A stretch of 64,000 nucleotides of DNA from Lachnospiraceae bacterium. GTDB lineage: Bacteria > Bacteroidota > Bacteroidia > Bacteroidales > UBA932. The notes beneath the pieces are model-generated. The model was not told where the DNA came from and did no database searches. It saw only the letters and a list, made by a program, of their open reading frames with translations. Every line of letters starts with the position of its first letter. Position 1 is the stretch's first letter. Where the stretch lies: contig CAVKBL010000009.1 of NCBI GenBank assembly GCA_963654805.1, positions 868 through 64,867 on the forward strand. Direction: 5' to 3'. The position numbers and the translations under genes were made by a program. Below are positions 7,266-27,562 of the stretch, one piece after another.

Positions 7266-7300
7266 AAGAAGACGCCTCGTATCGGGGTGTCTTCTTTTTA
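7266..7300 (+). terminator. Intrinsic terminator after fba
   Basis: aagaagacgcc...ggtgtcttctt stem followed by a T run. Confidence 0.8.
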
Positions 7301-7367
7301 TTTCTTCCTGCCGGACATAAATCCGAACATTTTTCATAAATTCGCTAGGAAAAAATCAAACATAACC

Positions 7368-8523: not shown

Positions 8524-9288
8524 ATGAAAGTAATAAACGAAAGAAGACAGGACATTATCAATACTATACTTAATCAGGGAGTGGTGAAAGTCTCACTTCT
8601 GGCCGAAAAGTACAATGTCACTCAGACAACGATACGCAAAGACCTTAACTATCTGGAGAAAAAGGGACTGCTGCACCGCTCATACGGTAATGCAGTGGCT
8701 GCCTCGGCTCCGGTAAAGGATATCTCGCTCGGCAAGAAAAAGCTCATTAACTTCAATGCCAAATTCCGCATCGCAAAAGCCGCCGCCGAACTGATAGAAG
8801 AGAACGACTCCATATTCATAGCTTCCGGCTCCACCATAGCCATCTTTGCGGACAATCTCAAACCTAAAGGCCGTCTCAATGTAGTCACCATCTCCGTGAA
8901 CATCTCCACGATGCTCGGTGAGAACGACAGCATATCGGTAATGCAGGTGGGAGGGATGCTCTACAGCAATACCCTTTCCGTCTACGGAAGCGATGCCATT
9001 CAATCCGTCAAAAACGTATTCTGTTCGAAACTTTACTTCGGTATCGATGGTATGTCACTCGAACACGGCATCACCTGCGCCACCAGAGAAGAAGCTGAAC
9101 TAACCCAAGAGATGATGCGCTCCGCAGAGAAAAAGATAGTTCTGTGCGATTCGAGCAAACTCGGGAAAAGAGGGTTTGCCCGAATCTCAGACATCTCCGA
9201 CATAGACATACTTATCACTGACTCCTCCTTTCCGCGAGAAGCCAAAGAGCAGTTTGAAAATGCCGGAGTGCAGATAATTATGGTCTAG
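8524..9288 (+). CDS. DeoR/GlpR (AgaR-like) transcriptional regulator
   Basis: ERRQDI...VTQTTIRKDL HTH, SGST, CDSSK, LITD. Confidence 0.93.
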   Translation: MKVINERRQDIINTILNQGVVKVSLLAEKYNVTQTTIRKDLNYLEKKGLLHRSYGNAVAASAPVKDISLGKKKLINFNAKFRIAKAAAELIEENDSIFIASGSTIAIFADNLKPKGRLNVVTISVNISTMLGENDSISVMQVGGMLYSNTLSVYGSDAIQSVKNVFCSKLYFGIDGMSLEHGITCATREEAELTQEMMRSAEKKIVLCDSSKLGKRGFARISDISDIDILITDSSFPREAKEQFENAGVQIIMV

Positions 9289-10129
9289 GCGAGTGATATT
9301 TCACAAGTCCTTCGATAGGAGACTTGATGATATTACCCAAACTCATACCGAACTCTGAAGCTACCTCGGCGAGAATGTCCCTATGACAATAGCCTACGGA
9401 GCCTACGCAATTGAGGCTATACTTTCTGTAATCAGGATAAAGAGTTACGATATTCCGGAAAAAATCCCTGAAAGCGCCTACCATCAGATCGTGGCAATAA
9501 GGGATAGTATGTCTATTTTGTCCCACCCATGTGCAGAACTGCGCGCAGTAGCGGTTAGCCTTAGGTTTACGATACACCTGCTCAATTATCTCTTCAGCGT
9601 TCTTGCCGACAAGAGCCTTGACCTTTTCATAAACATCCGAAGGCATGTTTTTTCTCGCATAATCACGCAGCAAAGTTTTTCCTATATATCCTCCACTGCC
9701 CTCGTCTCCCAAGATGAAACCCAGAGAATCGATATTGAGCGTCACCTGAGCTCCATCATAAAGGCAGCTGTTGGTACCCGTTCCAAGAATAGCTGCAAAA
9801 CCGGCGCTGTCACCAAGCAAGGCGCGTGCCGCTGCCAGTAAATCCATAGCTACAAACACCGTATCCGCATTAGGGAATACACCCAGGAGCGTCTCGCGCA
9901 TAAAATCATAGTCGAGTTCACTTACTCCGGCTCCATAAAAATACACTTCCTTTACTTCCCCCGGATTGAAACCGGCAGGAAGATTGGCACGGATGTCGCT
10001 TTGAATGTCAGGACCTGAAATAAAATTAGGATTATAGCCGAGGCTGTTGAAATATGCCGGAACGCCTCCTTCTTTCGGAATATAGGCCCAGTCTGTCTTG
10101 GTGGACCCGGAATCTGCAATCAGTATCAT
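9278..10129 (-). CDS. BadF/BcrAD-family N-acetylhexosamine kinase (MurK-like)
   Basis: MILIADSGSTKTDW, FYGAG, ILGTGTNS, LGFILGDEGSG. Confidence 0.85.
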   Translation of the reverse strand: MILIADSGSTKTDWAYIPKEGGVPAYFNSLGYNPNFISGPDIQSDIRANLPAGFNPGEVKEVYFYGAGVSELDYDFMRETLLGVFPNADTVFVAMDLLAAARALLGDSAGFAAILGTGTNSCLYDGAQVTLNIDSLGFILGDEGSGGYIGKTLLRDYARKNMPSDVYEKVKALVGKNAEEIIEQVYRKPKANRYCAQFCTWVGQNRHTIPYCHDLMVGAFRDFFRNIVTLYPDYRKYSLNCVGSVGYCHRDILAEVASEFGMSLGNIIKSPIEGLVKYHSPRP

Positions 10130-10185
10130 TTTGAAATTATTTTTAATTATTCTTGTCCGTAGCACAATAAAGGTGCCTGCAAAAC

Positions 10186-11388
10186 TTATTTTCTTATTCT
10201 ATAGCCGATGTAGGCGTAATAGAAAATAAAAAGATAGCACGGCAAGCATATCCAGTAGGCAGCCTGATTGCCTATCCCGTCCTTAAGAAACCCGAAAACG
10301 AGCGGAATCAGCGCACCTCCACCGAATGATGCTACCACCAGCGAAGATCCCACCTTTGTAAAACGTCCGAGATCCGTAATGGCCAACGGCCAGATGGCAG
10401 GATTCATCAGTGAACACGCCAGTGCGATGAAAGCCACGCACCAGATGGACACCCGGGCCGGAGTCAGGACAATGAGCAGCGTACCTGTCACCGCAAGCCA
10501 GCAGCATATACGCAGAGCCTTCACCTGTGACATAAAGCGTGGAATGAGAATAATTCCGAGCACATAACCTACCGCCATGCCTATACTTGGCCACAATGCA
10601 TATATCTGAGGATTAGGAAGATGCAGACAAGCGGCATAATCCACGACAGAAGACAGCGCAAGGGTCTCGACTCCGGTATAGAAGAACATGGCCAATGCCC
10701 CCAGAATAAGATGCGGGAACTGCCAGATGCTCGTCTTGCCGGCGGCGTAAGGACAATCCTCTGTCTCGCTTTCATCTTCACCGGCCGCCTTCACCTCCTG
10801 GAGAGGCGCGAAAAGAGTAAGAATGCCCAGAACCACGAAAATTCCGATTATTATTATGAAAGGCGTGGTGATATCGACAAGCTCCGCTTCATCTATGCTC
10901 TTGCCTATGACAGCCGCCAGAAAGACAGGTGCCGCAGCCCAAGCCATGGAATTGCAGATTCCCATCAGACTCATCCTCCTGGCGCCGCTCTCCATAGGTC
11001 CAAGTATGGTAACATATGGATTGATGGCCGTCTGCAGGACAGTATTGGCCACTCCGCTAAGAAACGAAGCGAAGATGAAAAGAGGAAGACTTTCCCCTTT
11101 GGCCGAAGGTATGAACAGGCAGAAAGCGATGGCGAAAAGGGCGAACGAGAGCGACATGGTCCGGCGGTATCCTATCCTGCCTATAATCTTGGCCGCAGGA
11201 TAACTGAACAGCAGAAAGGCGCAGAAAGTGGAGGCTATCAGAAGATACGACATCCCCGAAGACACTTCGAGAGTAGATTGGAGAAGCGGAATAAGATAAC
11301 TGTTGATGCCAAGGGCAAACCCCACGATAAAGAACATCGAACCTATTATCGCGAGAGGAAGGGCATAATTATGGGGTTTATTCATCAT
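10186..11388 (-). CDS. MFS sugar transporter (FucP/GluP/NagP family)
   Basis: About 12 hydrophobic segments; LQTAINPYVTILGP, YTGVE, PAIWPLAITDLG. Confidence 0.88.
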   Translation of the reverse strand: MMNKPHNYALPLAIIGSMFFIVGFALGINSYLIPLLQSTLEVSSGMSYLLIASTFCAFLLFSYPAAKIIGRIGYRRTMSLSFALFAIAFCLFIPSAKGESLPLFIFASFLSGVANTVLQTAINPYVTILGPMESGARRMSLMGICNSMAWAAAPVFLAAVIGKSIDEAELVDITTPFIIIIGIFVVLGILTLFAPLQEVKAAGEDESETEDCPYAAGKTSIWQFPHLILGALAMFFYTGVETLALSSVVDYAACLHLPNPQIYALWPSIGMAVGYVLGIILIPRFMSQVKALRICCWLAVTGTLLIVLTPARVSIWCVAFIALACSLMNPAIWPLAITDLGRFTKVGSSLVVASFGGGALIPLVFGFLKDGIGNQAAYWICLPCYLFIFYYAYIGYRIRK

Positions 11389-11407: not shown

Positions 11408-12502
11408 TCAGAACGGAAGTTCGGCATAGAGGCCGTTAAAAGTCTGCATCCCTTTCCATACAGGAGTGCCGAAAAGAGCGTTATCGTTGGTCGGGTCACA
11501 TATATACCACTGCCCATCCACATAAATGTGCGGAATGACATGCCCTATTACTGATGAAGAGAAATAGCACTGACCGTGAACATAACGGGCAGGTATACCG
11601 GCAGCGCGGCACATGGCCACCACGGCATGGGCCATATCACAACAGTTTCCCGCCTTGTCCTTTATCGTACCCACGGCGCCCTTCCTGGTATTATAATAGT
11701 TCTCCCACTCCCATTTGTCTCGGGCATATTCGAATATGGCTTCAGCCTTCTCTCTGTCGGCAGTCTTTCCGGAAATGGCCTCCTGCATGGCAGAAACTAC
11801 CGTCCCGTCATCAATCGGGCAATTTTTGGCGCTTCGAAGATAATCTGAACACCACACGCTCACGCTTTCAGGAAGAGCGCTATAATGACGATAATGATCC
11901 ATCACTCTTGCCACACAGACGAGTGCCTGAGCAAAAAGAAGATTTCCCACATACTGCTCACCTTCAGAAGTGTAATTGTACTCTACTGAAGAATCTCCGC
12001 TACGATCATCTTTCCACGTTCGCGTGCCGAAACAGCAATAATTAGGATACGCTCCTACCTTTGCGGCATAGGCATTCATCTTTTCAATGGCCCATTTCAG
12101 AGCCGGAAGAGAGATTTCGTCCTGTTCGAAAGTATTCCACGCCATGGACGAGGCGGAAGAATATTTCGGAATCTCCACATCACTGCATTCCTGCCAGCTG
12201 TCGGGATACTGCTCTATCAGCGAGATTATGGAACAGGCTGCTGAAAAATACTTGGCCTGACTATAATCTACGCCCTCCACATTGACGTAAAGGGGCATCT
12301 CATCCGTCTCGACAAAAGTCTCATAAGCCTGCGATACCGCCTGCAGGAACTCTCCATTCCATGAAGAAGGTGTAAATTCTTGGGGTGACGGTTCATTGCC
12401 TTTTCCGCTGTTTTTAGTGCATGCGCAACCGGCCAAGAGCAAAACGGCTGTCATAAGTATGGCATTGGCACAAAATACAGGATTAAAAAATCTATGATTC
12501 AT
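11408..12502 (-). CDS. Lipoprotein with three pseudomurein-binding-repeat-like units and a transglutaminase-like Cys peptidase domain (methanogen-type)
   Basis: Lipobox LAGC; repeats FVETDEMPLYVNVEG, MNAYAAKVGAYPNY, ARVMDHYRHYSALPESVSV; triad motifs GNCCD, GHV, DPT; AGIPARYVHG; C-terminus LYAELPF. Confidence 0.8.
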   Translation of the reverse strand: MNHRFFNPVFCANAILMTAVLLLAGCACTKNSGKGNEPSPQEFTPSSWNGEFLQAVSQAYETFVETDEMPLYVNVEGVDYSQAKYFSAACSIISLIEQYPDSWQECSDVEIPKYSSASSMAWNTFEQDEISLPALKWAIEKMNAYAAKVGAYPNYCCFGTRTWKDDRSGDSSVEYNYTSEGEQYVGNLLFAQALVCVARVMDHYRHYSALPESVSVWCSDYLRSAKNCPIDDGTVVSAMQEAISGKTADREKAEAIFEYARDKWEWENYYNTRKGAVGTIKDKAGNCCDMAHAVVAMCRAAGIPARYVHGQCYFSSSVIGHVIPHIYVDGQWYICDPTNDNALFGTPVWKGMQTFNGLYAELPF

Positions 12503-12578: not shown

Positions 12579-14939
12579 TCAGAAAGTCTCTCCCTGATGA
12601 TACATGTCGAAGTCGAACTGCTGATCCTTGAGCGCGGTGTAAACATTCTCGGTGATATCATTGTCGAGGATGTATTTGTAAGCTCTTGCAAGAATGTAAA
12701 GCTCACGTACCGGTGAGATGAGGCCCACATAACCGTCAAGAACTATGGTACTTCCCGTATCGGTACCGAACTGCTGGAAGTTGCCTATCTTTCCGAGAGG
12801 AGAAGAACACCAGCCATTCTTCACGAACGCACGTCCAAGATGTATGGAAGTAGCCTTCACGATGAACTTAAGACCTACTGTAGAGATAGCTTCTCCATTA
12901 TATGTAACCAGAGAATTGCCGCTGTTATCATATTCATACCACGGAGTGACACCCCAATCACATCCCTTCGTAGCTGAAGGGATCTTGTCGCTAAGCTTGC
13001 ATCCGTCACCGTAAGTAAATTCATCGTTACGTTTCTTCATGGTCTCGATGAAACCTTCACCTTCTTCCGTTACAAGATTAAGGAACGCGCGAACCGCTAT
13101 TTCCCACGCCTGTGCCGAGGTATATTCCGTATCGCCTACCTTGACTGACCATACGCCCCACTTAGGGTCATACTGGTTACCGTCATGACCATAAGGGTTC
13201 CCCGACGGCTCGCCGATAGGAATGAAATGAACATTCTCCCATGCGCTGTTGTTGTCAGTACAATGAACGCCTTCGGCATCCACTTTACCCATACATTCTT
13301 CCCAAAGAGGAAGACACTTTACGAATTCGATGGCGAAATCACGGATGGTAGCTTCGGAAGGCACAACATATTCTGCCTGTTTAACGACTATTTCAAGACC
13401 GTCCGTAACATTTCCGCCCTTGATGATCACCTTGCCTTCACGAGCTTCTCCTGTATTGGACTTCACGCTGACAGTGATTTTTGCAGGAGATGCAGCTTCG
13501 CCTGATACAGGAGAAACTGTAATCCAGTCTGCATTTGCTTCAGCTGTCCAAGCTTTCTTGGCGATAAATGATGCGTCCGTGCTCTTGGCGTCAGCCGAAA
13601 ATTCAAGAGTCTTGGTCTGAAGTTCTATATCCGGCATTTCAACACCATAGAGGTCATAGTCCAATTTAAGATTCTTGACTGCGTCATAGACATTTTCCGT
13701 GATATTGTTCTTGAGAAGATAATCATAGAAACGGCAGAGAACGAGGAACGCACGCATAGAACTGATATATCCGTGGTAAGGTTCCATAACGACAGAGCTG
13801 TCAGGATCTTTTTCAAAATTAAGGAAATTACCTATCTTGCCCAGTTCCGGAGCTCTCTTGAGGAACCAAGGAATAGCACGTACCATAAACGCGATATCGC
13901 ACGGATTTTCTTCAGAGAAATTCATAGGCCCGATTTCTCCGTCATTCGTGCTTTCATACCAAGGATACAATCCCCAGACAGCCCATTCTTCGGTAGCAGG
14001 AATCTTTTCATTAAGCGCCTTTCCGTTACCGAGGGAATGTACAGGAGTATTACGTTCCACTTGCTTGGTTACAGATCCTTCAGGTGTTACAAGATCAAGG
14101 AAGCCTTTGGCTGCCACCACGAAGCATTCTGCGGCAGTATATTCGGTACCTGCCACGGTAATGGTGTGATATGGCTGATATTTGGCGTCATACTGATCCT
14201 TGCCGTCAGCATAAGCTCCACCGCTGTGAGGAATAGGAATGAAATGGACATTCTCCCATACATCACCATTGTCAGTACAGTGGCTGGCGTCGGCGCTGAC
14301 ATTACCGACAGTCTTTTCCCAAATATCAAGATAAGACACCAGAGCCTCGGCGAAGCCCTTCAGCGTAGCTGCTGAGCCCAGATAATCGGTAGATACCGTC
14401 GCAGGAAGTTTGCCGTCTTTCTTATATAGAGCAAGAGTACGGGCAAGAGTAACGGTAGCACGGTTGGTAGAGAAAGCGATGGCGGAGCCGTCCTTATAGA
14501 ACACGGTCTGGTTAGGAATCTGTCCTTTCTCTTTAACGACTGCAAGAATATTGGCGGCTATAGCCTGCACACTCTCATCTCCGGTTACGGCGATGGTCTC
14601 AGCCTCATAACTGTCTCTGTCAGGATGTTCGGCAGCCTTGTAATTGAAAACTTCTACGTCGCCGGAAGTCGTTCCTGCGATAATATTGGATACTACCTTA
14701 CACAGAGCATACTGATACTGAGGCTGTGTAAGTGTCACATCCCCTACATTAAGAGAAGACGGGATGGCCGTAGTGGTCTCCCACTCAGAATACATAGTCG
14801 AAAAGGCTTCGACCAGAGTCTGCTGCGCGATGGTGGCAACAGGTTTAACATCAGATTCCGGTTTCTTTTCTTTATCGCAGGCTGCAAAAAGAGCAACTGC
14901 AGAAACCAGCACGATGAGATAATTCCAAATTTTTCTCAT
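12579..14939 (-). CDS. Surface lipoprotein: PMBR-like repeats plus two copies of an unknown ~250-aa domain separated by a BACON domain (putative surface glycan-binding protein)
   Basis: Lipobox FAAC; WETTTAIPSSLNVG, VKEKGQIPNQTVF, ARTLALYKKDGKLPATVS; duplicated HCTDN..WENVHFIPI; BACON WTAEANADWITVSPVSG...NTGEAREG. Confidence 0.72.
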   Translation of the reverse strand: MRKIWNYLIVLVSAVALFAACDKEKKPESDVKPVATIAQQTLVEAFSTMYSEWETTTAIPSSLNVGDVTLTQPQYQYALCKVVSNIIAGTTSGDVEVFNYKAAEHPDRDSYEAETIAVTGDESVQAIAANILAVVKEKGQIPNQTVFYKDGSAIAFSTNRATVTLARTLALYKKDGKLPATVSTDYLGSAATLKGFAEALVSYLDIWEKTVGNVSADASHCTDNGDVWENVHFIPIPHSGGAYADGKDQYDAKYQPYHTITVAGTEYTAAECFVVAAKGFLDLVTPEGSVTKQVERNTPVHSLGNGKALNEKIPATEEWAVWGLYPWYESTNDGEIGPMNFSEENPCDIAFMVRAIPWFLKRAPELGKIGNFLNFEKDPDSSVVMEPYHGYISSMRAFLVLCRFYDYLLKNNITENVYDAVKNLKLDYDLYGVEMPDIELQTKTLEFSADAKSTDASFIAKKAWTAEANADWITVSPVSGEAASPAKITVSVKSNTGEAREGKVIIKGGNVTDGLEIVVKQAEYVVPSEATIRDFAIEFVKCLPLWEECMGKVDAEGVHCTDNNSAWENVHFIPIGEPSGNPYGHDGNQYDPKWGVWSVKVGDTEYTSAQAWEIAVRAFLNLVTEEGEGFIETMKKRNDEFTYGDGCKLSDKIPSATKGCDWGVTPWYEYDNSGNSLVTYNGEAISTVGLKFIVKATSIHLGRAFVKNGWCSSPLGKIGNFQQFGTDTGSTIVLDGYVGLISPVRELYILARAYKYILDNDITENVYTALKDQQFDFDMYHQGETF

Positions 14940-14965: not shown

Positions 14966-16315
14966 TTATTGATTGAAATATTCCTTGATATCGGGAAACT
15001 CTCCGAGACCGTAGCGGAAAAGGACTATCCCGGCAGCCTTCGAATCCTTATAGACATTGCAGTCCTTTAGTATTCCTGCCGCATCCATAGGAGTAAGGCC
15101 GTCGTCAGTGCCTTTATAAGTGGTTGTTCCGGCCCAACATTCCGCTCCGTGAGCATTATCGGCAAATCTGTTCGCCACGTTCCGGCAAGCCTCATCGCTA
15201 TAGCCGTAAGAGTAGCGATAGATCATAGGCATCATAATATGGATATAACGTGTCATCTGATCTATGTTCTGCCCATAATAATAGCCGTTCGGAGTCTCAT
15301 CAGGCATAAGAGCGGCAGAAGTAACGAGCCCTTCGTCATAACTGTCACAAAGCTCACGAAGTTCCCTGCAGCAACGCGTTACAGCACCCACTGCATTGAC
15401 TTCAGCAGAAGGGTTATGCTTGGGAGCCGTACCTCCGAAACGGATATAATCCAGATGAAGGCCCTTTACGCCGTATTCTTCGATATAAGATTGGGCATTG
15501 GAGACTATCCTCTCGAACACCTCTTCTTTATAACGGTTGTTCTCGTCGTCTATGGGATTGATCCAACCTCCATTATAAAAGCATTGTATCCACGCATGCA
15601 CGGCAATGCCTTCTCTTTCAGCCGCCTCCAGAAACTTTATCGTAGTCTTTTTTGAGGACTGATTGAAAGCGGCATAATTGAGAATTATGTGATCATAGCC
15701 TTTGGCCTTGAGAGACTTCAGCTCTGCACAATCATCCGCCATAAGGCTCGGGATATGACTGCTCCAGGTCCATACGCCGGCACGGACAGTACCTTCAAGG
15801 CTGAATATGGCATTCTCAGCCGCTTTGCTGGAATAAGTAAGAGCACGCCACTGCGCTCCGCCGTCAGGAATTCTCTGATAACTGCCACGTGCCGTCAACG
15901 CATGGGCTTTCGTAAATTCTGCGTCTCTCGTGAATTCATCTATGGCCTTGCCCGTAGCGCTTGCGGCGAGTTTGAGCGTAAAGTCTGCGTCCGATGACAT
16001 GCCGGTAAGCAGCGTCTCATCTTCAGTAGAAAGTACCAGACGTTCTCCTGCGGCAAGGGATGTGCCTTCCGGAGCGGTATAAATGCACTTGCGTGAAAAA
16101 TACTGGTCGCTGAGATATAGTCCGACCCCCGACAGATCGACGCTTCCGGAGCCGGAGTTCAGAAGTTCCACCCAGCTGTTGGCGTCAGTGATCTCGTCAT
16201 GGGCGGCTATCTCGTTAATGACCAGGCCCTCCCATTTGGCGATATCGTTCTTCGAATCCTGACCGCAGGCTGCAAGCAGAAGTACAGGGAGAAGATATGA
16301 TAGGTTCCTGCGCAT
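14966..16315 (-). CDS. Lipoprotein: lamin-tail-like domain plus putative TIM-barrel glycoside hydrolase (GHL10/DUF4015-like, methanogen-type)
   Basis: Lipobox LAAC; LVINEI..WVELLN (LTD); VHAWIQCFY, GLHLDYIRF, SAALMP, YYYGQ, MPMIY, GIVLFRYGL. Confidence 0.78.
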   Translation of the reverse strand: MRRNLSYLLPVLLLAACGQDSKNDIAKWEGLVINEIAAHDEITDANSWVELLNSGSGSVDLSGVGLYLSDQYFSRKCIYTAPEGTSLAAGERLVLSTEDETLLTGMSSDADFTLKLAASATGKAIDEFTRDAEFTKAHALTARGSYQRIPDGGAQWRALTYSSKAAENAIFSLEGTVRAGVWTWSSHIPSLMADDCAELKSLKAKGYDHIILNYAAFNQSSKKTTIKFLEAAEREGIAVHAWIQCFYNGGWINPIDDENNRYKEEVFERIVSNAQSYIEEYGVKGLHLDYIRFGGTAPKHNPSAEVNAVGAVTRCCRELRELCDSYDEGLVTSAALMPDETPNGYYYGQNIDQMTRYIHIMMPMIYRYSYGYSDEACRNVANRFADNAHGAECWAGTTTYKGTDDGLTPMDAAGILKDCNVYKDSKAAGIVLFRYGLGEFPDIKEYFNQ

Positions 16316-16318
16316 AAC

Positions 16319-17149
16319 TTAAGCCTTTATGACGCCTTCCTCGCGAAGCCCTTTTTCAGCCTCGGTCAATCCGCCGTATTTCTTTATCGCCGCTTCGCAC
16401 ACTTCGTAGGTAAGAGCCGGATTACGCTCCACCATAGTACGTGTAAGACGGTCGATGACCTTGTTGTTGATAAGATGGGCGTGAACCATCCTGTTGCCCT
16501 CGACTCTGCCGAGGCGGCACATTATGGTGGTGCTTATCATGTCACAGATAAGCTTCTGTGAAGTGCCGGACTTCATTCGCGTGCTTCCCGTTATGAATTC
16601 AGGACCGGTGATGACCTCTACAGGATAATCGGAATAATCAGAAATGGGGGATCCCGGGTTATTGACGAAAGAGCCTGTAGGAATACCATGTTCGCGACAT
16701 GCTTTGAGCGTGGCCAGCACATAAGGAGTGTTACCGCTCGCGGAGATGCCCACCACGATATCTTTCGGACAGATGTTCTTCTCCTGCAGAAGCCTCCATC
16801 CTTCCTGTACATCATCTTCCATCTCTTCCAGGTCGAGAACCAGATTCTCCACCCCGCCTGCAAGAATGCACTGAATCATATCAGGAGACACACCATAAGT
16901 ATTCGGAATCTCCAGCATATCCAGAACGGCGAGCTTGCCGCCTGTTCCGGCCCCGCAATAAAACATTCTTCCTCCCTCGCGCAACTGCCCTTCAATGGCG
17001 CTTACCAGCTTTTCAAGTTCCGGAAGCACCTTCTCTATCGCAAGAGGGACCTTCTTGTCCTCCTCATTAATTTCGCGCAACAGTTCCGCTACGCTTTTTT
17101 TCTCCAAATGGTCGTGCAATGACGGCTGTTCTGTAAGTCTTAATGCCAT
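16319..17149 (-). CDS. murQ: MurQ-family sugar-phosphate etherase (divergent)
   Basis: TEQ, GGRMFYCGAGTGG, VVGISASGNTPYV, GPEFITGSTRMKSGTSQKL, RLGRVEGNRMV. Confidence 0.85.
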   Translation of the reverse strand: MALRLTEQPSLHDHLEKKSVAELLREINEEDKKVPLAIEKVLPELEKLVSAIEGQLREGGRMFYCGAGTGGKLAVLDMLEIPNTYGVSPDMIQCILAGGVENLVLDLEEMEDDVQEGWRLLQEKNICPKDIVVGISASGNTPYVLATLKACREHGIPTGSFVNNPGSPISDYSDYPVEVITGPEFITGSTRMKSGTSQKLICDMISTTIMCRLGRVEGNRMVHAHLINNKVIDRLTRTMVERNPALTYEVCEAAIKKYGGLTEAEKGLREEGVIKA

Positions 17150-17161
17150 AAATATCTAATT

Positions 17162-18994
17162 TTAAAATCTTTTACTTTTAATATCTCCTATCCGCTTGCC
17201 TCCCCTTACAAGCACCGCTTTCACTTCCTGCGAGCGGTTGATGACGAAAGGCTGAGTGTAAAGCGCCGATTCGGGCCCCGGGATGTTCCCGTCGAGGGTG
17301 TAACGTATCTCAGAATCCGGAAGGTCGGACGTGATGGTAACCACCTTGTCATATTCGGTGTCCTTGTGAAACTCTATATATGGGCTGAAGAAGTTGCGGC
17401 AAGCCCCGACTCCGAGAGCATCGAGCCTGTCGAAATGTGTTTCGAGTCTTCGCGTGAAGCCGTCCCAATCTTTGGGAGCCGTCGTCCATCCGCTCTCGGC
17501 GATGGCGCACATTCTCGGCCATGCCATATACTCGACCCTACCCGGAGTAGGCATATATTCCGTCCACACGCAGCCTTCAACTCCGAGTATATACCTCTGC
17601 TCTTCAGCACTCAATACGTCCGGCACAGGATTATATTCATACATGGTGCGCAGCATCGTCGGTCCTCCCATAGCGAGAGGCTCGCTGTCGGGGTCTCCCT
17701 GCCAATAGTCAAGATAATATTTCGGATACGGCGCCATGACTGCATAATGATGCATCTTGGCGGCCTTTATCCCGCCTTCCTCTCCAAGCCAGGACATCAC
17801 CTGAGCATTAGGAGCAAGACCTCCCTGAAGGATTTCGTCCCAACCTATGATCTCGCGGCCGCGGGAATTGAGGTATTTTTCTATCCGCTGCACGAACCAA
17901 CTCTGCAATTCAAACTCATCCTTAAGGCCAAGCCTGCGGATAAGAGCCTGACAGTGCGGGCATTTCTTCCAGCTGGCCTTGGGACATTCGTCCCCTCCGA
18001 TATGAATCACCTTGGAAGGGAAAAGTTCCATCACCTCGTCCAGCACATCTTCCAAAAACTTAAATGTCTCCTCCTTAGGACAATATACCTGACGGAAAAT
18101 GCCCCATTTGGTGGCGGTCTCGTAATGGTCCTCAAGTCCGCAGCTGAGCTCCGGATAGCAGGCTATAGCAGCCAGGGCGTGCCCCGGCATCTCTATCTCC
18201 GGGATAATGGTCACATAACGCTGCGCGGCATATTCCACAAGTGAGCGGACCTGCTCCTGCGTATAATATCCTCCATAAGGCTTTCCGTCATATATGCCGG
18301 AAGCGAGCGAACCGATCACGGTCTCGCGACGCCATTGGCCCTTTTCTGTCAGAAGCGGGTATTTCTTGATCTCCAATCGCCACCCCTGGTCTTCGGTCAG
18401 ATGCCAATGAAACCTGTTGACCTTATGAAGAGCCATAAGGTCTATATACCTTTTCAAAAAATCAATATCGAAGAAGTGCAGGCAACAGTCAAGATGCATT
18501 CCCCGATAAGCGAATCGCGGCGAGTCTTCTATCGTGCAGCACGGCACGGTCCAAGCCCTGACGGACTTTCTCACGGAAGAAAAAATATCCGTATCCAAGA
18601 GCTGCAACAGTGTCTGAAGCCCATAAAATGCTCCGGCACCGTCGCCATATTCGATGACGATGCGGCCCGGCTCCACATGCAGGGCATAAGCCTCGGAAGG
18701 AAAACCCGCATCAAGAAAGAAGATACCTTCATTCTGCGAGAAATCCACATCTGCGATCTTGAGGGAGAAGCCTGATACGGTCTGCAGGCGCTCGTTGAGA
18801 AAGCCTGCGGTACGCAGAATCTCCTCCCCGGCGGCATATATCACGGTATTCTTCGTGATGCTGAAATAACCTTCCCCGCGCTGCACATGCGAAGGCTGAG
18901 GAATGACGCAGATCGCCTCCGCCTCCCGGTTCCCGGACTGTCTGCATCCGAGAACCAGGGCGAGGACTATAATTATACTAACCACTCGTCTCAT
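17162..18994 (-). CDS. GH20 beta-N-acetylhexosaminidase (lipoprotein)
   Basis: DSPRFAYRGMHLD, FHWHLTEDQGWR, IHIGGDE catalytic motif, C-terminal Fn3-associated domain (IRYTLDG). Confidence 0.93.
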   Translation of the reverse strand: MRRVVSIIIVLALVLGCRQSGNREAEAICVIPQPSHVQRGEGYFSITKNTVIYAAGEEILRTAGFLNERLQTVSGFSLKIADVDFSQNEGIFFLDAGFPSEAYALHVEPGRIVIEYGDGAGAFYGLQTLLQLLDTDIFSSVRKSVRAWTVPCCTIEDSPRFAYRGMHLDCCLHFFDIDFLKRYIDLMALHKVNRFHWHLTEDQGWRLEIKKYPLLTEKGQWRRETVIGSLASGIYDGKPYGGYYTQEQVRSLVEYAAQRYVTIIPEIEMPGHALAAIACYPELSCGLEDHYETATKWGIFRQVYCPKEETFKFLEDVLDEVMELFPSKVIHIGGDECPKASWKKCPHCQALIRRLGLKDEFELQSWFVQRIEKYLNSRGREIIGWDEILQGGLAPNAQVMSWLGEEGGIKAAKMHHYAVMAPYPKYYLDYWQGDPDSEPLAMGGPTMLRTMYEYNPVPDVLSAEEQRYILGVEGCVWTEYMPTPGRVEYMAWPRMCAIAESGWTTAPKDWDGFTRRLETHFDRLDALGVGACRNFFSPYIEFHKDTEYDKVVTITSDLPDSEIRYTLDGNIPGPESALYTQPFVINRSQEVKAVLVRGGKRIGDIKSKRF

Positions 18995-21900
18995 TAAAAC
19001 GGTATTTCTACAAGTTCACCGACCTTTTCTCCATTATATTTTATTCCCTGCGCTTTCACGACGGTTCCCTTTTCAGGAACGAAAGGACGGGTGAATATAG
19101 GAGATGAGAGTTCAGGAATACTGCCGTCCACAGTATAGTGTATGGCCGCTTCCGGATAGTCAAGCATCATATCCGCATCTTCCGGACGCGTGAGGTTGAC
19201 GCTGTCGTAATCGAAAATCACGTTCCAATATGCCTTGGAATATCCTACTCTTTCGGCCTCTATCCGCTGCATTTCCTTTTCCATTCTGCATCGGAAAGAC
19301 CACCAGTCCTTGTTGGAGCGAAGCGTCCAGCCGCTTTCTGCCAATGCCGAGGTGCGAGGGAATGCATTATATTCCACTTTACCGCTTTCCGGTGCATATT
19401 CTCCCCACAGACAGCCTTCTACACCTATGATGTATTTCTTGCTGAGCTCCGGAAGAGAATCGACCGCCGGATAGTAATTGGCTATCTTTTTCAGAGGCAG
19501 GAAGCGCGGCTGATTGGCCGGCTCACGCAGAGGCCCCTCCTGATAATAGTTGAAATAGCACCAGCGGTCAGGCGAGAGTATTACTCTATGTCCCGAACGT
19601 ATGCCTTTGGCCGCAGGACCGTGTCCGCGATAAGACTGCGCTATCATCTGTCCGTTGACTCCCTTACCGTCGAGGATCTCATCCCAGCCTATGACCTGCT
19701 TGCCATGAGCACGCAGATATTCACTTATACGGTTCACGAAATAGGACTGAACCTCGTCGTAACTCTTGAGACCGAGCTGTCTCATTATCTTACGGCAATA
19801 AGGGCTGTTTCTCCACGCATCCTGCGGACATTCATCTCCTCCTATGTGATAATATTTGGACGGGAAAAGCGGAAGAAGTTCCGCGAAGACGTCTTCGAGA
19901 AAAGTGAGCGTGGCTTCGCTCGGACAATACACGTCCTTCTTGACTCCCCAGTCGGTAGATACGCTATAAGTCCTGGTCGTATCGCAGGAGAATCTCGGAT
20001 AAGCGGCAAGAGCGGCCGTTGAATGCCCCGGAATCTCTATCTCCGGAACCACCTCTATCTGACGCAGACGCGCATATTCCACGACCTCACGCACATCATC
20101 CTGCGTATAGAATCCGCCGTGAGGCTTTCCATCAGGATTTTTCCCGTTATAATCGGAGGTAAACGGACGTTTCGAGCCTATCTCCGTAAGAAGCGGATAT
20201 TTCTTGATCTCTATTCTCCAGCCCTGATCTTCCGTCAGATGCCAATGGAATTTGTTCAGCTTACGGATAGACATATAGTCTATGAACTCCTTGACAAAAT
20301 CTTTGGAATAAAAATATCTTCCGCAGTCAAGCATCATCGAGCGGTACGGCAGTGCCGGGCGGTCGCTGATACGGCAGCATGGAGCGCTCCATTTCACGCC
20401 GTGAACTCTGTCCGGAGAATAAATCTGAGCCGGCAGCAGCTGTAGAAGAGATTGCAGACCATAGAATGCTCCTGCAGAAGTCGAAGCCTCTATCTTCACT
20501 CTCTTGGGGCTTACTTCCATTCTGTACTCCTCCTCTCCGAGACCTTCCACCTGACGCAGCAGAATATCTGACCCGCGGCCTTTGGAAAGATCTATCCCGG
20601 TGGAAGCCTGCACTTTCTCCATGAAGACGACGGAAGCCTGAGCAAAGGTAGGCTCAACGCTTTCGACACTGAGGTGAGAGCCGGATTTGAGAGTAAATTC
20701 CCCGGGGAGGGGCTCCAGCGAGGCCGGCTCGGGAATTATCCCGTAACAACGCCAATCCTTCTGTGGTTCAGCATTTTCCGAGCGGATCGCATCGGAGAGT
20801 ATCTTCTTCACGCCTTCGGCATAGACAGCCGGAGCCGCCGGAGAAATAGGATAAGGGGCCTTTATGTAAATATGCATCTGTTCAGTCTCATACTCATAGC
20901 CCTTGCGTACCTTATATGCACGCTCCGAAGGCAGGTATGAGTTCTGTCCGTTAGTATATCCGGCGAAAAATATGGTCTTCTGCGGGAAAGCCTCACGAGC
21001 CTCGGACTGATATTCACAGAACGGCTCACCGTCCGAGAAAAAGAACAGCACACCGTCAAGATCCACCACGTGCAGACTGTAGCGCAACTTGCTAGGAACT
21101 GGTCCGGCTTTGAAGCGTTCGAGGATTTCGCCTTCCCATCTGCGTACATCATCACCGAAAGTGGACGACACGGCAGAAGAACAGCGCGCAAGCGAATCGG
21201 CATGATGACGCACGTCCGCAGCGGTTATCTCATCTTTCTGATAAGGAAGATCCACCTTTTCATTTATAAGACGAAGCAGTCCGCGGCTTTTGACCGCAGT
21301 GAACTGCACACCGGAAAGGTCATCGGCAAGTTCACGCCCGCAAGTTTCGGCATAAGCTGCGTCCTGCGGGCCGCGGGCAGGGTCCATGTTGCCGGCAGCA
21401 CCGGTAAGGAAGAACACCTCACCGCCCCATTTTTCGGAAAGAATGCCGGAGCATACTCCGGGATAGTCCGAAGACACGGCCTTGCTGCGAGGACCCATAC
21501 ATACCGGATGACAAGCAAGATTGACTATGCTTACCGTAGGAGCACCCTTGCGGATAAACCGTGCCACATACACATCGTGGTCCACAGGACCGCCTTTTTC
21601 GCATCTGTTCGCGTTGATGAATGTCCTCCCCTTCCCTGTCTGCAGGGTAAAAGGCTTGAACTCAGCATCGGATACGATGGTCTTGACGGCATTGTCCACC
21701 AAAGTCTCCATCATACGGAGCTTCCACGCCAGATTGGTCCCCCCGGCCGTAACGGACGCGCCTCCGCTACGTGGAGCGGAGTGCGTGTGGATGTTATGCA
21801 TCAATATCCTTCCCAGATCAAGGCCCGACCTTTCGGCTATCATAGTCCTTATGGTATCCGAGATGGAAGGTGATATCTCCATCAGATCATTGGAGATGAT

Positions 21901-22128
21901 GCACACCTTCTGACCTTCGGCGTCCCTTATTACAAGACAGTGAGAGCGCAGATTCTGATGCAGTCCGTCAGAAAGGCCCTGTCTTGCCGCAAATCCAGCC
22001 AGCACGACGTGCTCATCCAGTGTCGTGGAGATGTCACACGACCGGTAGTTCATCTCCAGGCGGGAGGATTGGCATCCCACCGCCAGGAAAAGTACAGCTA
22101 CATATTTTATATTTTTCAAAAAATTCAT
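18994..22128 (-). CDS. Neutral/alkaline-ceramidase-like amidohydrolase fused to GH20 hexosaminidase
   Basis: N-terminal LAGF..R, HNIHTHSAP, NLACHP, VSSDYPG, TGAAGNMDP, GEPF, YLPS; C-terminal FHWHLTEDQGWR and YHIGGDE. Confidence 0.85.
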   Translation of the reverse strand: MNFLKNIKYVAVLFLAVGCQSSRLEMNYRSCDISTTLDEHVVLAGFAARQGLSDGLHQNLRSHCLVIRDAEGQKVCIISNDLMEISPSISDTIRTMIAERSGLDLGRILMHNIHTHSAPRSGGASVTAGGTNLAWKLRMMETLVDNAVKTIVSDAEFKPFTLQTGKGRTFINANRCEKGGPVDHDVYVARFIRKGAPTVSIVNLACHPVCMGPRSKAVSSDYPGVCSGILSEKWGGEVFFLTGAAGNMDPARGPQDAAYAETCGRELADDLSGVQFTAVKSRGLLRLINEKVDLPYQKDEITAADVRHHADSLARCSSAVSSTFGDDVRRWEGEILERFKAGPVPSKLRYSLHVVDLDGVLFFFSDGEPFCEYQSEAREAFPQKTIFFAGYTNGQNSYLPSERAYKVRKGYEYETEQMHIYIKAPYPISPAAPAVYAEGVKKILSDAIRSENAEPQKDWRCYGIIPEPASLEPLPGEFTLKSGSHLSVESVEPTFAQASVVFMEKVQASTGIDLSKGRGSDILLRQVEGLGEEEYRMEVSPKRVKIEASTSAGAFYGLQSLLQLLPAQIYSPDRVHGVKWSAPCCRISDRPALPYRSMMLDCGRYFYSKDFVKEFIDYMSIRKLNKFHWHLTEDQGWRIEIKKYPLLTEIGSKRPFTSDYNGKNPDGKPHGGFYTQDDVREVVEYARLRQIEVVPEIEIPGHSTAALAAYPRFSCDTTRTYSVSTDWGVKKDVYCPSEATLTFLEDVFAELLPLFPSKYYHIGGDECPQDAWRNSPYCRKIMRQLGLKSYDEVQSYFVNRISEYLRAHGKQVIGWDEILDGKGVNGQMIAQSYRGHGPAAKGIRSGHRVILSPDRWCYFNYYQEGPLREPANQPRFLPLKKIANYYPAVDSLPELSKKYIIGVEGCLWGEYAPESGKVEYNAFPRTSALAESGWTLRSNKDWWSFRCRMEKEMQRIEAERVGYSKAYWNVIFDYDSVNLTRPEDADMMLDYPEAAIHYTVDGSIPELSSPIFTRPFVPEKGTVVKAQGIKYNGEKVGELVEIPF

Positions 22129-22149: not shown

Positions 22150-24147
22150 CTAGTATCCGGGATTCTGAACCAGAGTACCGTTGGATTTGGTCATCTCATT
22201 GGCAGGGATTGGCATAAGATAATTAGGCCATTCTCCATTTTTCTTGTAAAAATGCTTCTGGGTAGGAGGGATGTTCAGGCAGCAGTCGCCGTAATCCACC
22301 CAATAGTCTTTCCCGAGCCAACTGTATTTGATGCAGGAGCCCTGTATCTGAACAGCACCTTCGGAGTCTATCTGCGCCTGCTCGAACATGTCCCTGCCGT
22401 TGGCAGTTATGTAATCCGTCCTTTCCTTGGAATTGAGCCAATAGTAGCAGGTATTGTTCAGGCTCTCGTCATAGGTGCGCGCCACACGGTAGATGGTCTC
22501 CGTAGATGAACCGTTCTGCAGTATCATGGTCCTCATACCTATGATAGGGATATTCTCATAGAATGGAGCCGTCTTCCACCGGCGGACATCGAAGTAGCGG
22601 AAGGTCTCGAATGCAAGTTCCACCCTGCGTTCATTGACAAGCCTGTCCCAAAGAGACTCGCCGCTTTCAGTTACTTCCGGCATACCGGCACGTGCGCGTA
22701 TCTTGTTGATATACTGGCGGCACAAAGCCTCGTCACCTGTCATATACGCACACTCAGCATAATTGAGATACATCTCGGCCAATCTGAACCAAGGATAAAG
22801 AAGCGAACCCGTCTCCGATTCGGTTATAGGAGAAGTAGGGATATACCACTTCATCATCTCAAGCCCGGTGGCGCCGGTGGCCGCCCAAAGATGCTTGGCC
22901 TTGGATGTATAGGTAGGCTCCGTATTGCCTTTTGCAAAATCACTTTTCTGTTTGCCTTCGTAGTAGAGCGCCAGATCAAGCGTATTCACATGATAACCCG
23001 AGCCGTCGGTGTTAGGATATTCGCCTCCGTGATAAGCGATGCTCTGATAAAAACGCGGGTCGCGTCCGTCAAAAGGCTTCTGCGGATCATATCCTGAACC
23101 ATCCTCGAAGATTTTTTTGCCGTTGGCCATCTCGTAATCTATGAACATAGCCTGCGTAGGCTCGAAAGCAGTCCATCCGTTGAAATACACTATGGAATAA
23201 AGAAGCTGGGCTTTCTTCATCGAGTTGTCATTGGCATCGGAATTTGAAATGAAATACTTGGCCCAGATAAGTTCCGGAGAATCGGTGTTTTTCCACATCC
23301 CGTCATAAGTCTTGTCCAGACTGTATGCAGCATCCACGTCGGCCCTGTCGATGATGAGTTTGGTAGCGTCAAGAGCACGTTTCCATTTGTCTGCGCTATA
23401 TGTCCCGCGAAAGATTCCGCCTTCCGGACGGTCAGGATCGTTGAAAAGAGGCGACGCGGCCACGAGAGTAAGACGGCTGCGCAGCGCGAGAACCACATCC
23501 TTGTTGATTCTACCCTTGAGTGCGTTCTCTTTAGAAGGAAGAAGCTGATAAGCCTTGTCCAAGTCTTCAAGAATGAAATCCACACAGTCATCGAAATTCG
23601 CCCTTTGCGCGTCATAGACATCCGTCAGATTATATGCCTTGGTGACGATAGGCACACCGGCATAACGCTCTATGAGATTGAAATATGTCCAGGCACGAAG
23701 AAAATACACCTCACCCTTAAGTCTGGTCAGATCATCCTGAGAGATCTTGGTGCCCTTTTCGTCCACATATGCCAGAAAATAATTTATCCTGTATATGCGC
23801 TCGTAAGCTCGGTTCCAGATGTTCAGTATGGTAGTTCTGGTACTATGTGCCGGACCGCCTTCGCTCATATACATGATATTGTCCGGAGTCATGGTGCCTG
23901 AAGCTATGTATCTGGTGGAAGTGCCGCCGTAGCGGAAATATCCCTCGTCCGTAATGCACCCTATGTTTCCCTCCTGGAAAGGATCGGGAAGTACGGTGTA
24001 TATGGCGTTGATATAATTTTCTGCCAATGCGGCGCTGTTGAAGACAGCATCTTCCGAAAGTTTGTCCAGAGGAGTCTTGTCCAGAAAACCGTCGTTACAC
24101 GAAAGTGCGAGCGAAGCAGTGGCAATTATTGCAAATATCTTTTTCAT
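22150..24147 (-). CDS. susD: SusD/RagB family lipoprotein
   Basis: LSCNDGFLDKTP, GEVYFLRAW.YF, RDPRF, FRLAEMYLNYAE, NERRVELAFE, QNPGY. Confidence 0.93.
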   Translation of the reverse strand: MKKIFAIIATASLALSCNDGFLDKTPLDKLSEDAVFNSAALAENYINAIYTVLPDPFQEGNIGCITDEGYFRYGGTSTRYIASGTMTPDNIMYMSEGGPAHSTRTTILNIWNRAYERIYRINYFLAYVDEKGTKISQDDLTRLKGEVYFLRAWTYFNLIERYAGVPIVTKAYNLTDVYDAQRANFDDCVDFILEDLDKAYQLLPSKENALKGRINKDVVLALRSRLTLVAASPLFNDPDRPEGGIFRGTYSADKWKRALDATKLIIDRADVDAAYSLDKTYDGMWKNTDSPELIWAKYFISNSDANDNSMKKAQLLYSIVYFNGWTAFEPTQAMFIDYEMANGKKIFEDGSGYDPQKPFDGRDPRFYQSIAYHGGEYPNTDGSGYHVNTLDLALYYEGKQKSDFAKGNTEPTYTSKAKHLWAATGATGLEMMKWYIPTSPITESETGSLLYPWFRLAEMYLNYAECAYMTGDEALCRQYINKIRARAGMPEVTESGESLWDRLVNERRVELAFETFRYFDVRRWKTAPFYENIPIIGMRTMILQNGSSTETIYRVARTYDESLNNTCYYWLNSKERTDYITANGRDMFEQAQIDSEGAVQIQGSCIKYSWLGKDYWVDYGDCCLNIPPTQKHFYKKNGEWPNYLMPIPANEMTKSNGTLVQNPGY

Positions 24148-27100: not shown

Positions 27101-27276
27101 ACATAGACTATGACTCCAGTCAGAGCTTCGTTTTCCGTATCTGTTACGATTCCGGAAACGGTAACAGTTTTGCGATTCTGCGGATATTCACCAGCTCGAG
27201 CCGAAGGAATACCGGATGCGAAGGTCACCGCACAAAGCAAGGCCATCGCAATAAGATGCTTGGTAACAATTCCCAT
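24160..27276 (-). CDS. susC: SusC/RagA TonB-dependent transporter
   Basis: VVVGYGTQ, PLIVIDGV, VLKDASGAIYGARSANGVILVTTKRG, terminal Phe. Confidence 0.95.
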   Translation of the reverse strand: MGIVTKHLIAMALLCAVTFASGIPSARAGEYPQNRKTVTVSGIVTDTENEALTGVIVYVKGQAATNMSSAMTDIDGRYTLTVPEGAVLVASLLGFEDQEQAVEGRQTVNFVLVTESTFLSDAVVVGYGTQSKLTLTGSVTQTSGRELTKNSGVNISQGLAGRLSGVIISNRTGEPGKDDATMFIRGRSTLGDNSPLIVIDGVPRSNEEFSRLSGDEIESVNVLKDASGAIYGARSANGVILVTTKRGQFGEGTTVTFNYDLGLQQPTRLVEMADAVLYTNAYNAELAITGAAPVYNETQLAHYRDGDDLINYPNTNWFDEIIKPVSLQHKYGVNFSGGGKNVAYFVELNGQYQDGIYKKSATNYDQYNIRTNIDIKVTDALKLGVNLNARQQHKNYSAFPSDSYGIFYIATRLKPTGAAYYPNGYLRGGSNPAVLVQDLTGYDRTTINTINSTFTLNWDLGALTKGLSVNGTLAYDVIGNFQKNWQKNWQYWSYDEVTETFEEKTASYWSTPVLHEYQRNSGKTTVNVNLNYDRDFDGHHFTGLLGFEQASYRLDYFRAGINKYDSDILDEFFAGSADKSWYSIGGYATETARRSYFTRIGYDWKSRYMFQFIGRFDGSENFPSDKRWGFFPGVSLGWRLSEESFVKENVPWLTNLKLRGSYGQQGNDQVDAFQYMTTYEYTSGSSYKLRLDDKDVSFIIPGKVPNQNITWEVAETWNLGLDGSVNNGLFGWEVEYFSTERSNILCTRNASIPYYTGLTNSLPDENIGIVTNKGFELQLHHENKVHGSDFAYHLSGNFMFARNRIKYMDETPWGEGHEYMNLTGHPMGSQLYYQVIGINKTQEDLEKYPQMSGATLGDFIFADLDGDGKITSYDRKRCDLTAVPEIVYGLTFDGHWKNLDFSVLFQGQARARFYYAPLMDPLSGNVEKEAAEKAWTLTNTDSNYPRLGSNVSNGGVNSSSFYYRDASFLRLKNVEIGYNLTNSFLTQKLNIKNLRFYIAGYNLLTFSPLKNVDPETSDESYQTYPQMRIFNTGVKLTF

Positions 27277-27325: not shown

Positions 27326-27446
27326 CAAATGTATAAATTAATTTCGTTTAATGAAAACTTTTTACAAAAAATTATTGCGATTTTATTTACAAAATGTTTC
27401 GTTCGTACATCAAACAAAACATTTTAATGGCAAATCGTTCGTTCTA
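27326..27446. promoter_or_regulatory. Divergent susC/GH109 control region: -7 element and TTCGTT-type repeats
   Basis: TACATTTG on the minus strand at 27326-27333; tttcgttt near 27342, aaatgtttcgttcgt near 27392, aaatcgttcgttct near 27432. Confidence 0.5.
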
Positions 27447-27562
27447 AGCAAACACCCTTATGACGTCACAGGGGAAAAATTCATATCTCACCCGAAAGTT
27501 TGCTGACAAATCGAAATCCGAATTTTTTTCATAAATTTACGGGCATTTTAACTACATCCACC

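Follow-up and report, generated by a model that had tools for sequence, protein, structure and literature searches.

The DNA analysed here is a 64,000-nucleotide stretch of the Bacteroidales genome assembly GCA_963654805.1 (contig CAVKBL010000009.1, positions 868 to 64,867 of the forward strand), referred to as the window. It contains a run of ten genes on the minus strand, spaced by -1 to 76 bases, of which the eighth encodes the focal protein of this study (P0001; 11408..12502). According to the open reading frame (ORF), Pfam and the AlphaFold model, this is a 364-residue lipoprotein with a pseudomurein-binding (PMB) module and a transglutaminase-fold cysteine peptidase. The run begins with the genes for a SusC-type TonB-dependent transporter (24160..27276) and a SusD-family binding lipoprotein (22150..24147), both recognised by Pfam. 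These are followed by two lipoprotein genes identified by Pfam and a lipobox pattern, one for a neutral-ceramidase-like amidohydrolase domain fused to GH20 (18994..22128) and one for a GH20 beta-N-acetylhexosaminidase (17162..18994), and by a murQ-like gene (16319..17149) whose product is an etherase paralogue of a separate subfamily, with E80 and E108 kept and the active-site loop remodelled. The sixth gene (14966..16315) encodes a 449-residue lipoprotein (P0002) with a lamin-tail domain (LTD) and a methanogen-type DUF4015-like glycoside hydrolase in which D289-Y-x-R292 is conserved. The seventh (12579..14939) encodes a 786-residue lipoprotein (P0003), a putative surface binding protein with an N-terminal PMB module, two unknown domains of about 250 residues and a BACON domain. 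Downstream of the focal gene lie genes for a GluP/NagP-like major facilitator superfamily (MFS) sugar transporter (10186..11388) and a BadF-family amino-sugar kinase (9278..10165), the latter a paralogue of the kinase beside the housekeeping murQ gene on contig C6.

The layout was compared across 60 related loci, 40 of them with at least 9.5 kb of upstream and 40 with at least 9 kb of downstream sequence. All 40 upstream regions contained the hydrolase and GH20 genes, 39 contained the gene for the binding protein and 37 the MurQ-like gene; of the 40 downstream regions, 38 contained the kinase gene and 37 the MFS transporter gene. The tandem susC-susD pair with co-directional, closely spaced CAZyme genes, kept across genomes, is the arrangement by which polysaccharide-utilisation loci are recognised. 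A convergent gene for a DeoR/AgaR-like regulator (8524..9288, plus strand) is weakly tied to the locus, being present in 3 of the 40 loci with at least 9 kb downstream.

Catalytic domain and pseudomurein-binding module

An earlier sequence-only reading of this DNA had described the ORF at 11408-12502 as a bacterial lipoprotein of methanogen-like PMB plus transglutaminase architecture. The ORF lies there on the minus strand and encodes 364 residues; all 11 of the 11 segments quoted in that reading were located in the protein, and the Cys-His-Asp motifs are intact, at residues 285, 320 and 336. The lipoprotein signal peptide (12425..12502, minus strand) ends at lipobox Cys26, found by pattern match, and a lipobox-like motif is present in 26 of 28 aligned members of the focal peptidase family. 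The AlphaFold model is confident, with a mean predicted local distance difference test score (pLDDT) of 89.

The catalytic domain, delimited by Pfam and alignments, comprises residues 221-364 (11411..11842, minus strand). Pfam Transglut_core covers residues 240-337 (E 1.3e-22), and the triad residues C287, H321 and D336 (codons 11642-11644, 11540-11542 and 11495-11497, minus strand) are invariant across a 31-sequence bacterial and archaeal alignment. The triad was intact in 118 of the 120 near homologues listed, the two exceptions stopping short of the triad columns, and in 78 of 79 longer homologues. Beside the catalytic Cys and His stand N286 and G320, which do not vary among the 49 rows from the locus and methanogens and recur in PeiP and PhiF1 Pei; of the 13 generic domains, no more than one has each of them.

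A catalytic-domain tree was calculated from 86 rows and 146 columns under LG+G4, with an ingroup picked by similarity and long branches meeting. A branch with support of 95/96 separated the locus, methanogen and phage proteins, together with a small number of further bacterial ones, from 13 generic Bacteroidota transglutaminase-like domains. The path length from the focal domain was 1.42-1.94 to 29 Methanobacteriales domains, compared to 3.59-5.36 to the 13 generic domains and 4.6 to PeiP. One clostridial and one further protein branched outside both the locus clade and the archaeal rows. The shorter paths, together with the PMB module described below, bear out the methanogen-type ancestry and architecture that had been proposed; nesting among generic bacterial transglutaminases, named beforehand as the contrary outcome, is not what the tree shows.

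A likeness to the methanogen phage lysins PeiW and PeiP had also been proposed, and it held in structure and not in sequence. PeiP ranked first when the full model was searched with Foldseek (E 8e-10), and in VIA the model aligned with PeiW at Z 12.8 and a root-mean-square deviation (rmsd) of 2.7 over 126 residues; C287, H321 and D336 align with the triad of PeiP. PeiW and PeiP (MEROPS C71, PF12386; PDB 8jx4, 8z4f) carry an N-terminal PMB region and a C-terminal Cys-His-Asp domain; the focal protein has a PMB-type module ahead of such a domain, and the N-C-x-D and G-H patterns are shared. In contrast, identity in the structure alignments is 13-14% with no significant sequence match, and PeiW and PeiP are soluble phage lysins with four motifs whereas the focal protein is a bacterial lipoprotein with three. 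Membership of C71 was rejected, since PF12386 gave no match at E<=0.1 and hhalign to PeiP gave a probability below 2%. Three relatives of the focal protein match PF12386 weakly, below cut-off. Judged by sequence, the focal protein belongs to the cellular Methanobacteriales family that combines PMB with PF01841 rather than to C71. A sequence search of solved structures returned only a generic Cytophaga protein for the focal protein and nothing useful for the hydrolase.

The PMB-type module is acidic, has three motifs and occupies approximately residues 48-216 (11855..12361, minus strand), as identified by an archaeal hidden Markov model (HMM), hhalign and Foldseek/VIA. The three helix-P-x-x-V units noted in the sequence-only reading start at residues 59, 130 and 197; all are present, and together they form one folded module and not independent repeats. 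In a direct scan, Pfam PMBR matched neither the focal protein nor the 786-residue lipoprotein. PF09373 matched 22 of 28 focal-family members at E<=0.1 and 27 of the 120 near homologues listed carry it as a precomputed annotation; a genome-wide PF09373 search gave no match anywhere, and its positive controls were likewise unmatched. The HMM was built from 57 archaeal-only PMB modules (145 positions). Applied to the genome's 12,320 reading frames, it gave E values below 0.5 for just two, the 786-residue lipoprotein (E 5e-9) and the focal protein (E 2.9e-4, 20.4 bits), compared to a top score of 7.0 bits for 1000 shuffles. In profile-profile comparison by hhalign, the focal N-terminal region matched the archaeal module with a probability of 97.4% (E 1.4e-11) and with the three helix-proline motifs in register. 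Folded alone, the module reached a pLDDT of 93. PeiP was its top Foldseek match (E 5e-4) and the sole match below 1e-3, and among 48,161 chains in VIA the N-terminal domains of PeiP and PeiR ranked first and second. The size of the module in the focal family (approximately 145 residues) is that of the MTH719 PMB domain, described as having 143 residues and three motifs and as binding methanogen walls (PMC3124540).

Methanogen-type relatives and distribution

Near homologues of the focal protein comprised 157 proteins, 42-90% identical among the 120 listed, and the two with a named organism are from Bacteroidales. A further 79 longer proteins matched residues 180-364, and 68 of these carry PF09373; in all 12 cases in which an organism is named it is Methanobacterium, Methanobrevibacter or Methanothermobacter. 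The neighbouring hydrolase, the most telling feature of the gene context, is also matched by 49 of the 79 (best E 1e-44), the PMB region of five methanogen-type proteins matches the 786-residue lipoprotein at its N-terminus, and in two homologues the binding protein and the peptidase are fused. Because the long homologues match hydrolase, module and peptidase, the locus is read as a methanogen fusion protein split three ways: what a single methanogen wall protein combines, a predicted hydrolase, a PMB module and a peptidase, is encoded here on three lipoproteins. The Methanobacteriales DUF4015/GHL10-PMBR-transglutaminase fusions (P0150, P0148, P0133) share with the locus three homologous modules, the C-terminal motif and the triad, with identities of 33-48% in the peptidase region and approximately 24-36% in the hydrolase. 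In contrast to these fusions, the locus parts are split over three lipoproteins, the modules are acidic and the bacterial host has no pseudomurein. We take ArmA of M. smithii, a hydrolase-peptidase said to be confined to walled archaea, to be a fusion of this build, although the identification is unconfirmed. ArmA and PeiS have been named as archaeal-wall hydrolytic enzymes (bioRxiv 10.64898/2026.10.03.756221).

The hydrolase was found in 136 of 151 Methanobacteriota genomes (domain query, E<=1e-8) and in 0 of 400 other Bacteroidota genomes (full-length query, E<=1e-10), and the phage collection contained no match. The 83 bacterial copies and the 44 archaeal ones have 32 conserved positions in common, including D289 and R292. 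A mixture-model tree was calculated from 36 of 69 rows and rooted on five other DUF4015-like proteins; in it the bacterial clade lay inside the archaeal rows (branches 100/99 and 100/100), grouped with Methanobrevibacter-type sequences. In the 786-residue lipoprotein, residues 191-436 and 528-784 are two copies of a domain of about 250 residues that is further expanded in relatives. As expanded PMB modules these domains reached only about 8% in hhalign, and neither Pfam nor the Atlas gave a match for them.

A profile search of 1.84 billion representatives returned 291 proteins at E<=1e-30. The archaeal-module HMM matched 111 of the best 150, and many of the other 39 are short or divergent bacterial members. 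In the ESM Atlas, three Bacteroidota clusters came first and Methanobacteriota PMBR-transglutaminase clusters next. Among 50,697 phage records, ORF35 of Methanobacterium virus Drs3 (AXN53416.1, 'pseudomurein-binding repeat protein') ranked first, with 37% identity over residues 182-364; it combines one 145-residue module with the same peptidase family and, unlike the focal protein, is a phage gene without a lipoprotein anchor. With its full module and intact triad, Drs3 ORF35 (L013:2608-3510) is a candidate endolysin of that virus. A search of 185,579 species genomes, using patterns derived from an alignment in which methanogen rows were included, gave 517 confirmed stretches with peptidase loci; the best 80 of these comprised 58 bacterial loci of the focal type followed by 22 from Methanobacteriales, and no others. 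The taxonomy of matches, proposed earlier as a check, therefore shows that, outside the protein's own bacterial family, the nearest named relatives are wall proteins of Methanobacteriales and a gene of a methanogen phage.

The focal locus type was found in 60 gut or digester genome records, and the source habitats in the record titles were ruminant guts, chicken caecum, human faeces and similar. Three of the 58 bacterial loci are named Candidatus Cryptobacteroides. Seven of the 58 have a Firmicutes label or no taxon label, at odds with the near-identical Bacteroidota-type locus that they carry. In the Firmicutes-labelled records (L001, L002, L004, L010, L018, L020, L339) locus genes are up to 97% identical, and the labels or the binning look wrong. 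The spread is patchy, at 13 of 400 genomes of the family (2 of 37 genera) and 1 of 300 genomes of the order. Divergent family members (P0126, P0207, P0208, P0213, P0214, P0228, P0233) branch near or outside the locus clade; several have lipoprotein-like N-termini and one has four repeated N-terminal modules. One Clostridia-labelled genome (G1129; L120:10001-11932, L281, L285-L288) carries five peptidase-family matches, several with two or three PMB modules and one with a dockerin. It had no hydrolase match and no sugar-uptake operon beside the one copy examined. A search for parallel clostridial loci led back to the source locus, most of the remaining matches lying in the N-terminal dockerin region, and in 301 genomes of the phylum strong peptidase matches were found only in the source genome, with weak ones in three others. 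This genome possibly represents a second bacterial lineage aimed at methanogen walls.

These relatives bear on antagonism or predation, in which the surface enzymes would lyse live methanogens on contact and the importers would harvest the remains. The architecture of the focal protein is that of the Pei lysins (PMC2989375), its best phage relative is a Methanobacterium virus gene with the same module and triad, and the hydrolase is expanded to two or three copies in several relatives. Nevertheless, the focal protein is lipid-anchored, the locus showed no apparatus for secretion, delivery or contact, and the layout is that of a nutrient-uptake locus. Predation, which is compatible with the use of methanogen walls as a nutrient, is considered quite improbable. 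The 'anti-methanogen lysin' of the sequence-only reading, as a stand-alone enzyme, fits less well: the focal protein is anchored in the membrane and belongs to a nutrient-uptake locus that also has importers and cytoplasmic catabolic genes, a setting that speaks for foraging.

The MurQ paralogue and the substrate of the locus

On sequence grounds, the locus is probably a pseudomurein (archaeal peptidoglycan) utilisation locus in which the focal protein would cut peptide cross-links. A canonical SSS transporter-kinase-MurQ cluster is present elsewhere in the genome (contig C6:16691-22822) and is the housekeeping route for salvage of N-acetylmuramic acid (MurNAc). The two MurQ proteins differ at the TIGR00274 equivalog cut-off of 302 bits, which the contig C6 protein passes (303.4 bits) and the locus protein fails (239.8 bits). 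With this score and its altered active-site loop, the locus protein was rejected as a canonical MurQ. Seventy positions of 30 canonical MurQ proteins, including E80 and E108, are kept in the window copy and 42 locus copies. The equivalents of E80 and E108 are presumably the catalytic residues of MurQ. In the locus subfamily, 36 canonical positions differ, clustered at 70-107 with several adjoining E80 and E108, and the loop substitutions S>G70, P>N83 and A>N102 are fixed in all aligned locus copies. Fifteen locus MurQ proteins formed a separate branch in the tree (support 100).

Downstream of the core, an accessory block recurs, with a C45 hydrolase in 28 of 40 regions, a glutamate symporter in 25, an M20 amidohydrolase in 21 and a C1 peptidase in 21. 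Examples with the sodium/glutamate symporter, the C45 Ntn-hydrolase and other members lie at L034:13897-19052 and L053:8592-17117, and a GHL10 gene was seen in 12 of the 40 downstream regions and a serpin in 2. The focal genome is without the C45, symporter and M20 genes and has a C1 peptidase elsewhere. The pseudomurein stem is described as containing L-Glu with gamma and epsilon bonds (PMC10117817), and a stem of this kind suits the accessory block.

Other features of the window were noted around the locus. A match to what we take to be the Bacteroidota promoter motif lies 50 bases upstream of susC (27326..27333, minus strand), a motif that occurs at chance frequency in the window; promoter and terminator scans gave results at or near chance level. 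A GH109-family gene (27500-28930, plus strand) diverges from susC, and an APH-family phosphotransferase gene downstream (7287-8456, plus strand) recurs in 7 of 60 related loci. Two ORFs (1393-2739, minus strand; 3071-4213, plus strand) have Walker-A-like motifs and by eye resemble AAA-family ATPases.

Several results weigh against pseudomurein as the substrate. In the peptidase tree the locus proteins form a clade (95/89) beside the archaeal rows, as their sister group, and are not nested in them. In the approximately unbiased (AU) test, archaeal monophyly of the hydrolase was not rejected (p=0.074); because of this value, and of three nameless rows counted as archaeal, transfer of the hydrolase from archaea is likely rather than established. 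VIA placed a generic Cytophaga protein (Z 14.4, rmsd 2.3, 140 residues) above PeiW for the full model, and the scores for the isolated module were modest (Z 5.8, 75 residues, rmsd 2.8; second match Z 5.1). The focal module has an isoelectric point (pI) of 4.3 (residues 45-222), and bacterial PMB modules have an acidic median of 4.6 (n=49), in contrast to a basic 9.2 for archaeal ones (n=57). Since the MTH719 domain is reported to bind best near its own basic pI (PMC3124540), wall binding by the bacterial modules may differ, and this charge contrast is the clearest result against it. Lysozyme-treated bacterial cells (spheroplasts) are also described as bound by the PMB domain (PMC3124540).

The catabolic core also occurs alone. 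A motif scan for the MurQ subfamily returned 66 loci, of which 49 were informative (at least 3 kb on both sides) and 17 were dropped. At least one of the hydrolase, peptidase and binding-protein genes is carried by 46 of the 49, and 3 of 49 have the core without archaeal-type genes, a further point against the pseudomurein reading, as is the result that the hydrolase was found in 0 of 5 genomes of this core-only type, with only a weak generic match for the peptidase. Two of the three loci are Prevotella-labelled (L290, L291) and carry related SusC/SusD, amidohydrolase, GH20s, MurQ-like protein, kinase, MFS transporter, C45 and C1; they may reflect cross-feeding on fragments, or a core that serves another substrate. 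The third (L300:694-13863) is an unrelated SusC/SusD locus; along with the kinase, MFS and MurQ-like genes it contains a ceramidase-like one, and by eye an aminotransferase gene and one for an oxidoreductase were recognised there.

The acidic modules, the spheroplast binding and the 3 of 49 core-only loci favour the alternative of methanogen-derived enzymes repurposed for the digestion of bacterial murein or some other polymer of amino sugars and peptide, as does the gene set itself, its GH20s, MurNAc-kinase-family kinase and MurQ homologue being typical of murein salvage. MurQ is described as cleaving the lactyl ether of MurNAc-6-phosphate (PMC6262408), and MurNAc is reported to be absent from archaeal walls (bioRxiv 10.64898/2026.10.03.756221), which leaves two options: murein is what the locus handles, or its MurQ acts on a different C3-substituted amino sugar. 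With 36 altered positions, the remodelled active site speaks for the latter, without proving it. Moreover, the genome already has a canonical kinase-MurQ cluster for murein, a Pfam scan of 14 proteins showed no domain of the amidase, LysM or lysozyme type, and methanogen-family residues are kept in both outer enzymes. A NamZ-like gene near the contig C6 cluster, recognised by its motifs, stands with that cluster in speaking against murein. Murein or a similar polymer as the substrate is therefore regarded as unlikely.

The last point against hydrolysis of pseudomurein concerns the reaction itself. For the archaeal PMB+PF01841 family both hydrolysis and cross-linking of pseudomurein have been proposed, and many of the Methanobacteriales transglutaminase genes are annotated as adhesins (PMC11915815; PMC10117817). 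The triad alone cannot separate hydrolysis from transfer, and the focal protein could be a true transglutaminase or a mere adhesin tying the bacterium to hydrogen-consuming methanogens. Such a role would leave the co-travelling glycoside hydrolase, GH20s, importers, kinase, etherase and peptidase module unexplained, and it is considered very improbable.

Proposed pathway and significance

In a pseudomurein utilisation locus, the PMB modules of the focal protein and the 786-residue lipoprotein, homologous to the archaeal modules, would bind the methanogen wall. The Cys-His-Asp domain, with its triad and methanogen ancestry, would hydrolyse isopeptide cross-links as the Pei enzymes do, and the DUF4015-like hydrolase, also of methanogen ancestry, would cut the glycan. 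SusD and SusC, whose family role in uptake is established, would take up glycopeptide fragments; from their families, the GH20s would free GlcNAc/GalNAc and the ceramidase-like domain would strip the amide-linked stem peptide. The MFS transporter, the kinase and the remodelled MurQ-like enzyme might then process a methanogen-specific amino sugar, with MurQ-type chemistry speculatively taking off a C3 substituent other than lactate, as the divergence of the enzyme suggests. In many relatives, the linked C45 hydrolase, glutamate symporter, M20 and C1 enzymes would recover the glutamate-rich peptide. The substrate is most likely dead or shed methanogen wall.

The locus resembles Bacteroidota polysaccharide-utilisation loci and kinase-MurQ MurNAc salvage in its SusC/SusD pair, surface lipoproteins, GH20s, transporter, BadF kinase and SIS-domain etherase, and differs from them in its methanogen-type outer enzymes and separate MurQ subfamily. 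It is likeliest a conserved uptake locus of this known kind with a cross-domain substrate as its target. Bacterial wall hydrolases do not break down pseudomurein. The pseudomurein-lytic enzymes described in PMC2989375 and PMC3210951 come from methanogens and their viruses; PeiW and PeiP are described there as showing no activity at 37 C (PMC2989375), and a 2011 review speaks of no known enzyme for the glycan bonds (PMC3210951). An incomplete literature search found no report of a bacterial pseudomurein-utilisation locus.

The locus bears on the question of which organisms recycle methanogen walls in guts and digesters. If the reading is correct, it would provide a cross-domain food link, a candidate enzyme for each step in the breakdown of the methanogen-specific sugar and the isopeptide stem, and enzymes of gut-bacterial origin with which to take apart or attack the walls of the principal methanogens of the rumen and the human gut. 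In the wider account suggested by these genes, which we hold with about even confidence, Bacteroidales of the gut and rumen would have taken a methanogen autolysin, split it and built an archaeal-peptidoglycan pathway with a new etherase, becoming dedicated consumers, and possibly killers, of Methanobacteriales, a course that a Clostridia lineage may parallel independently.

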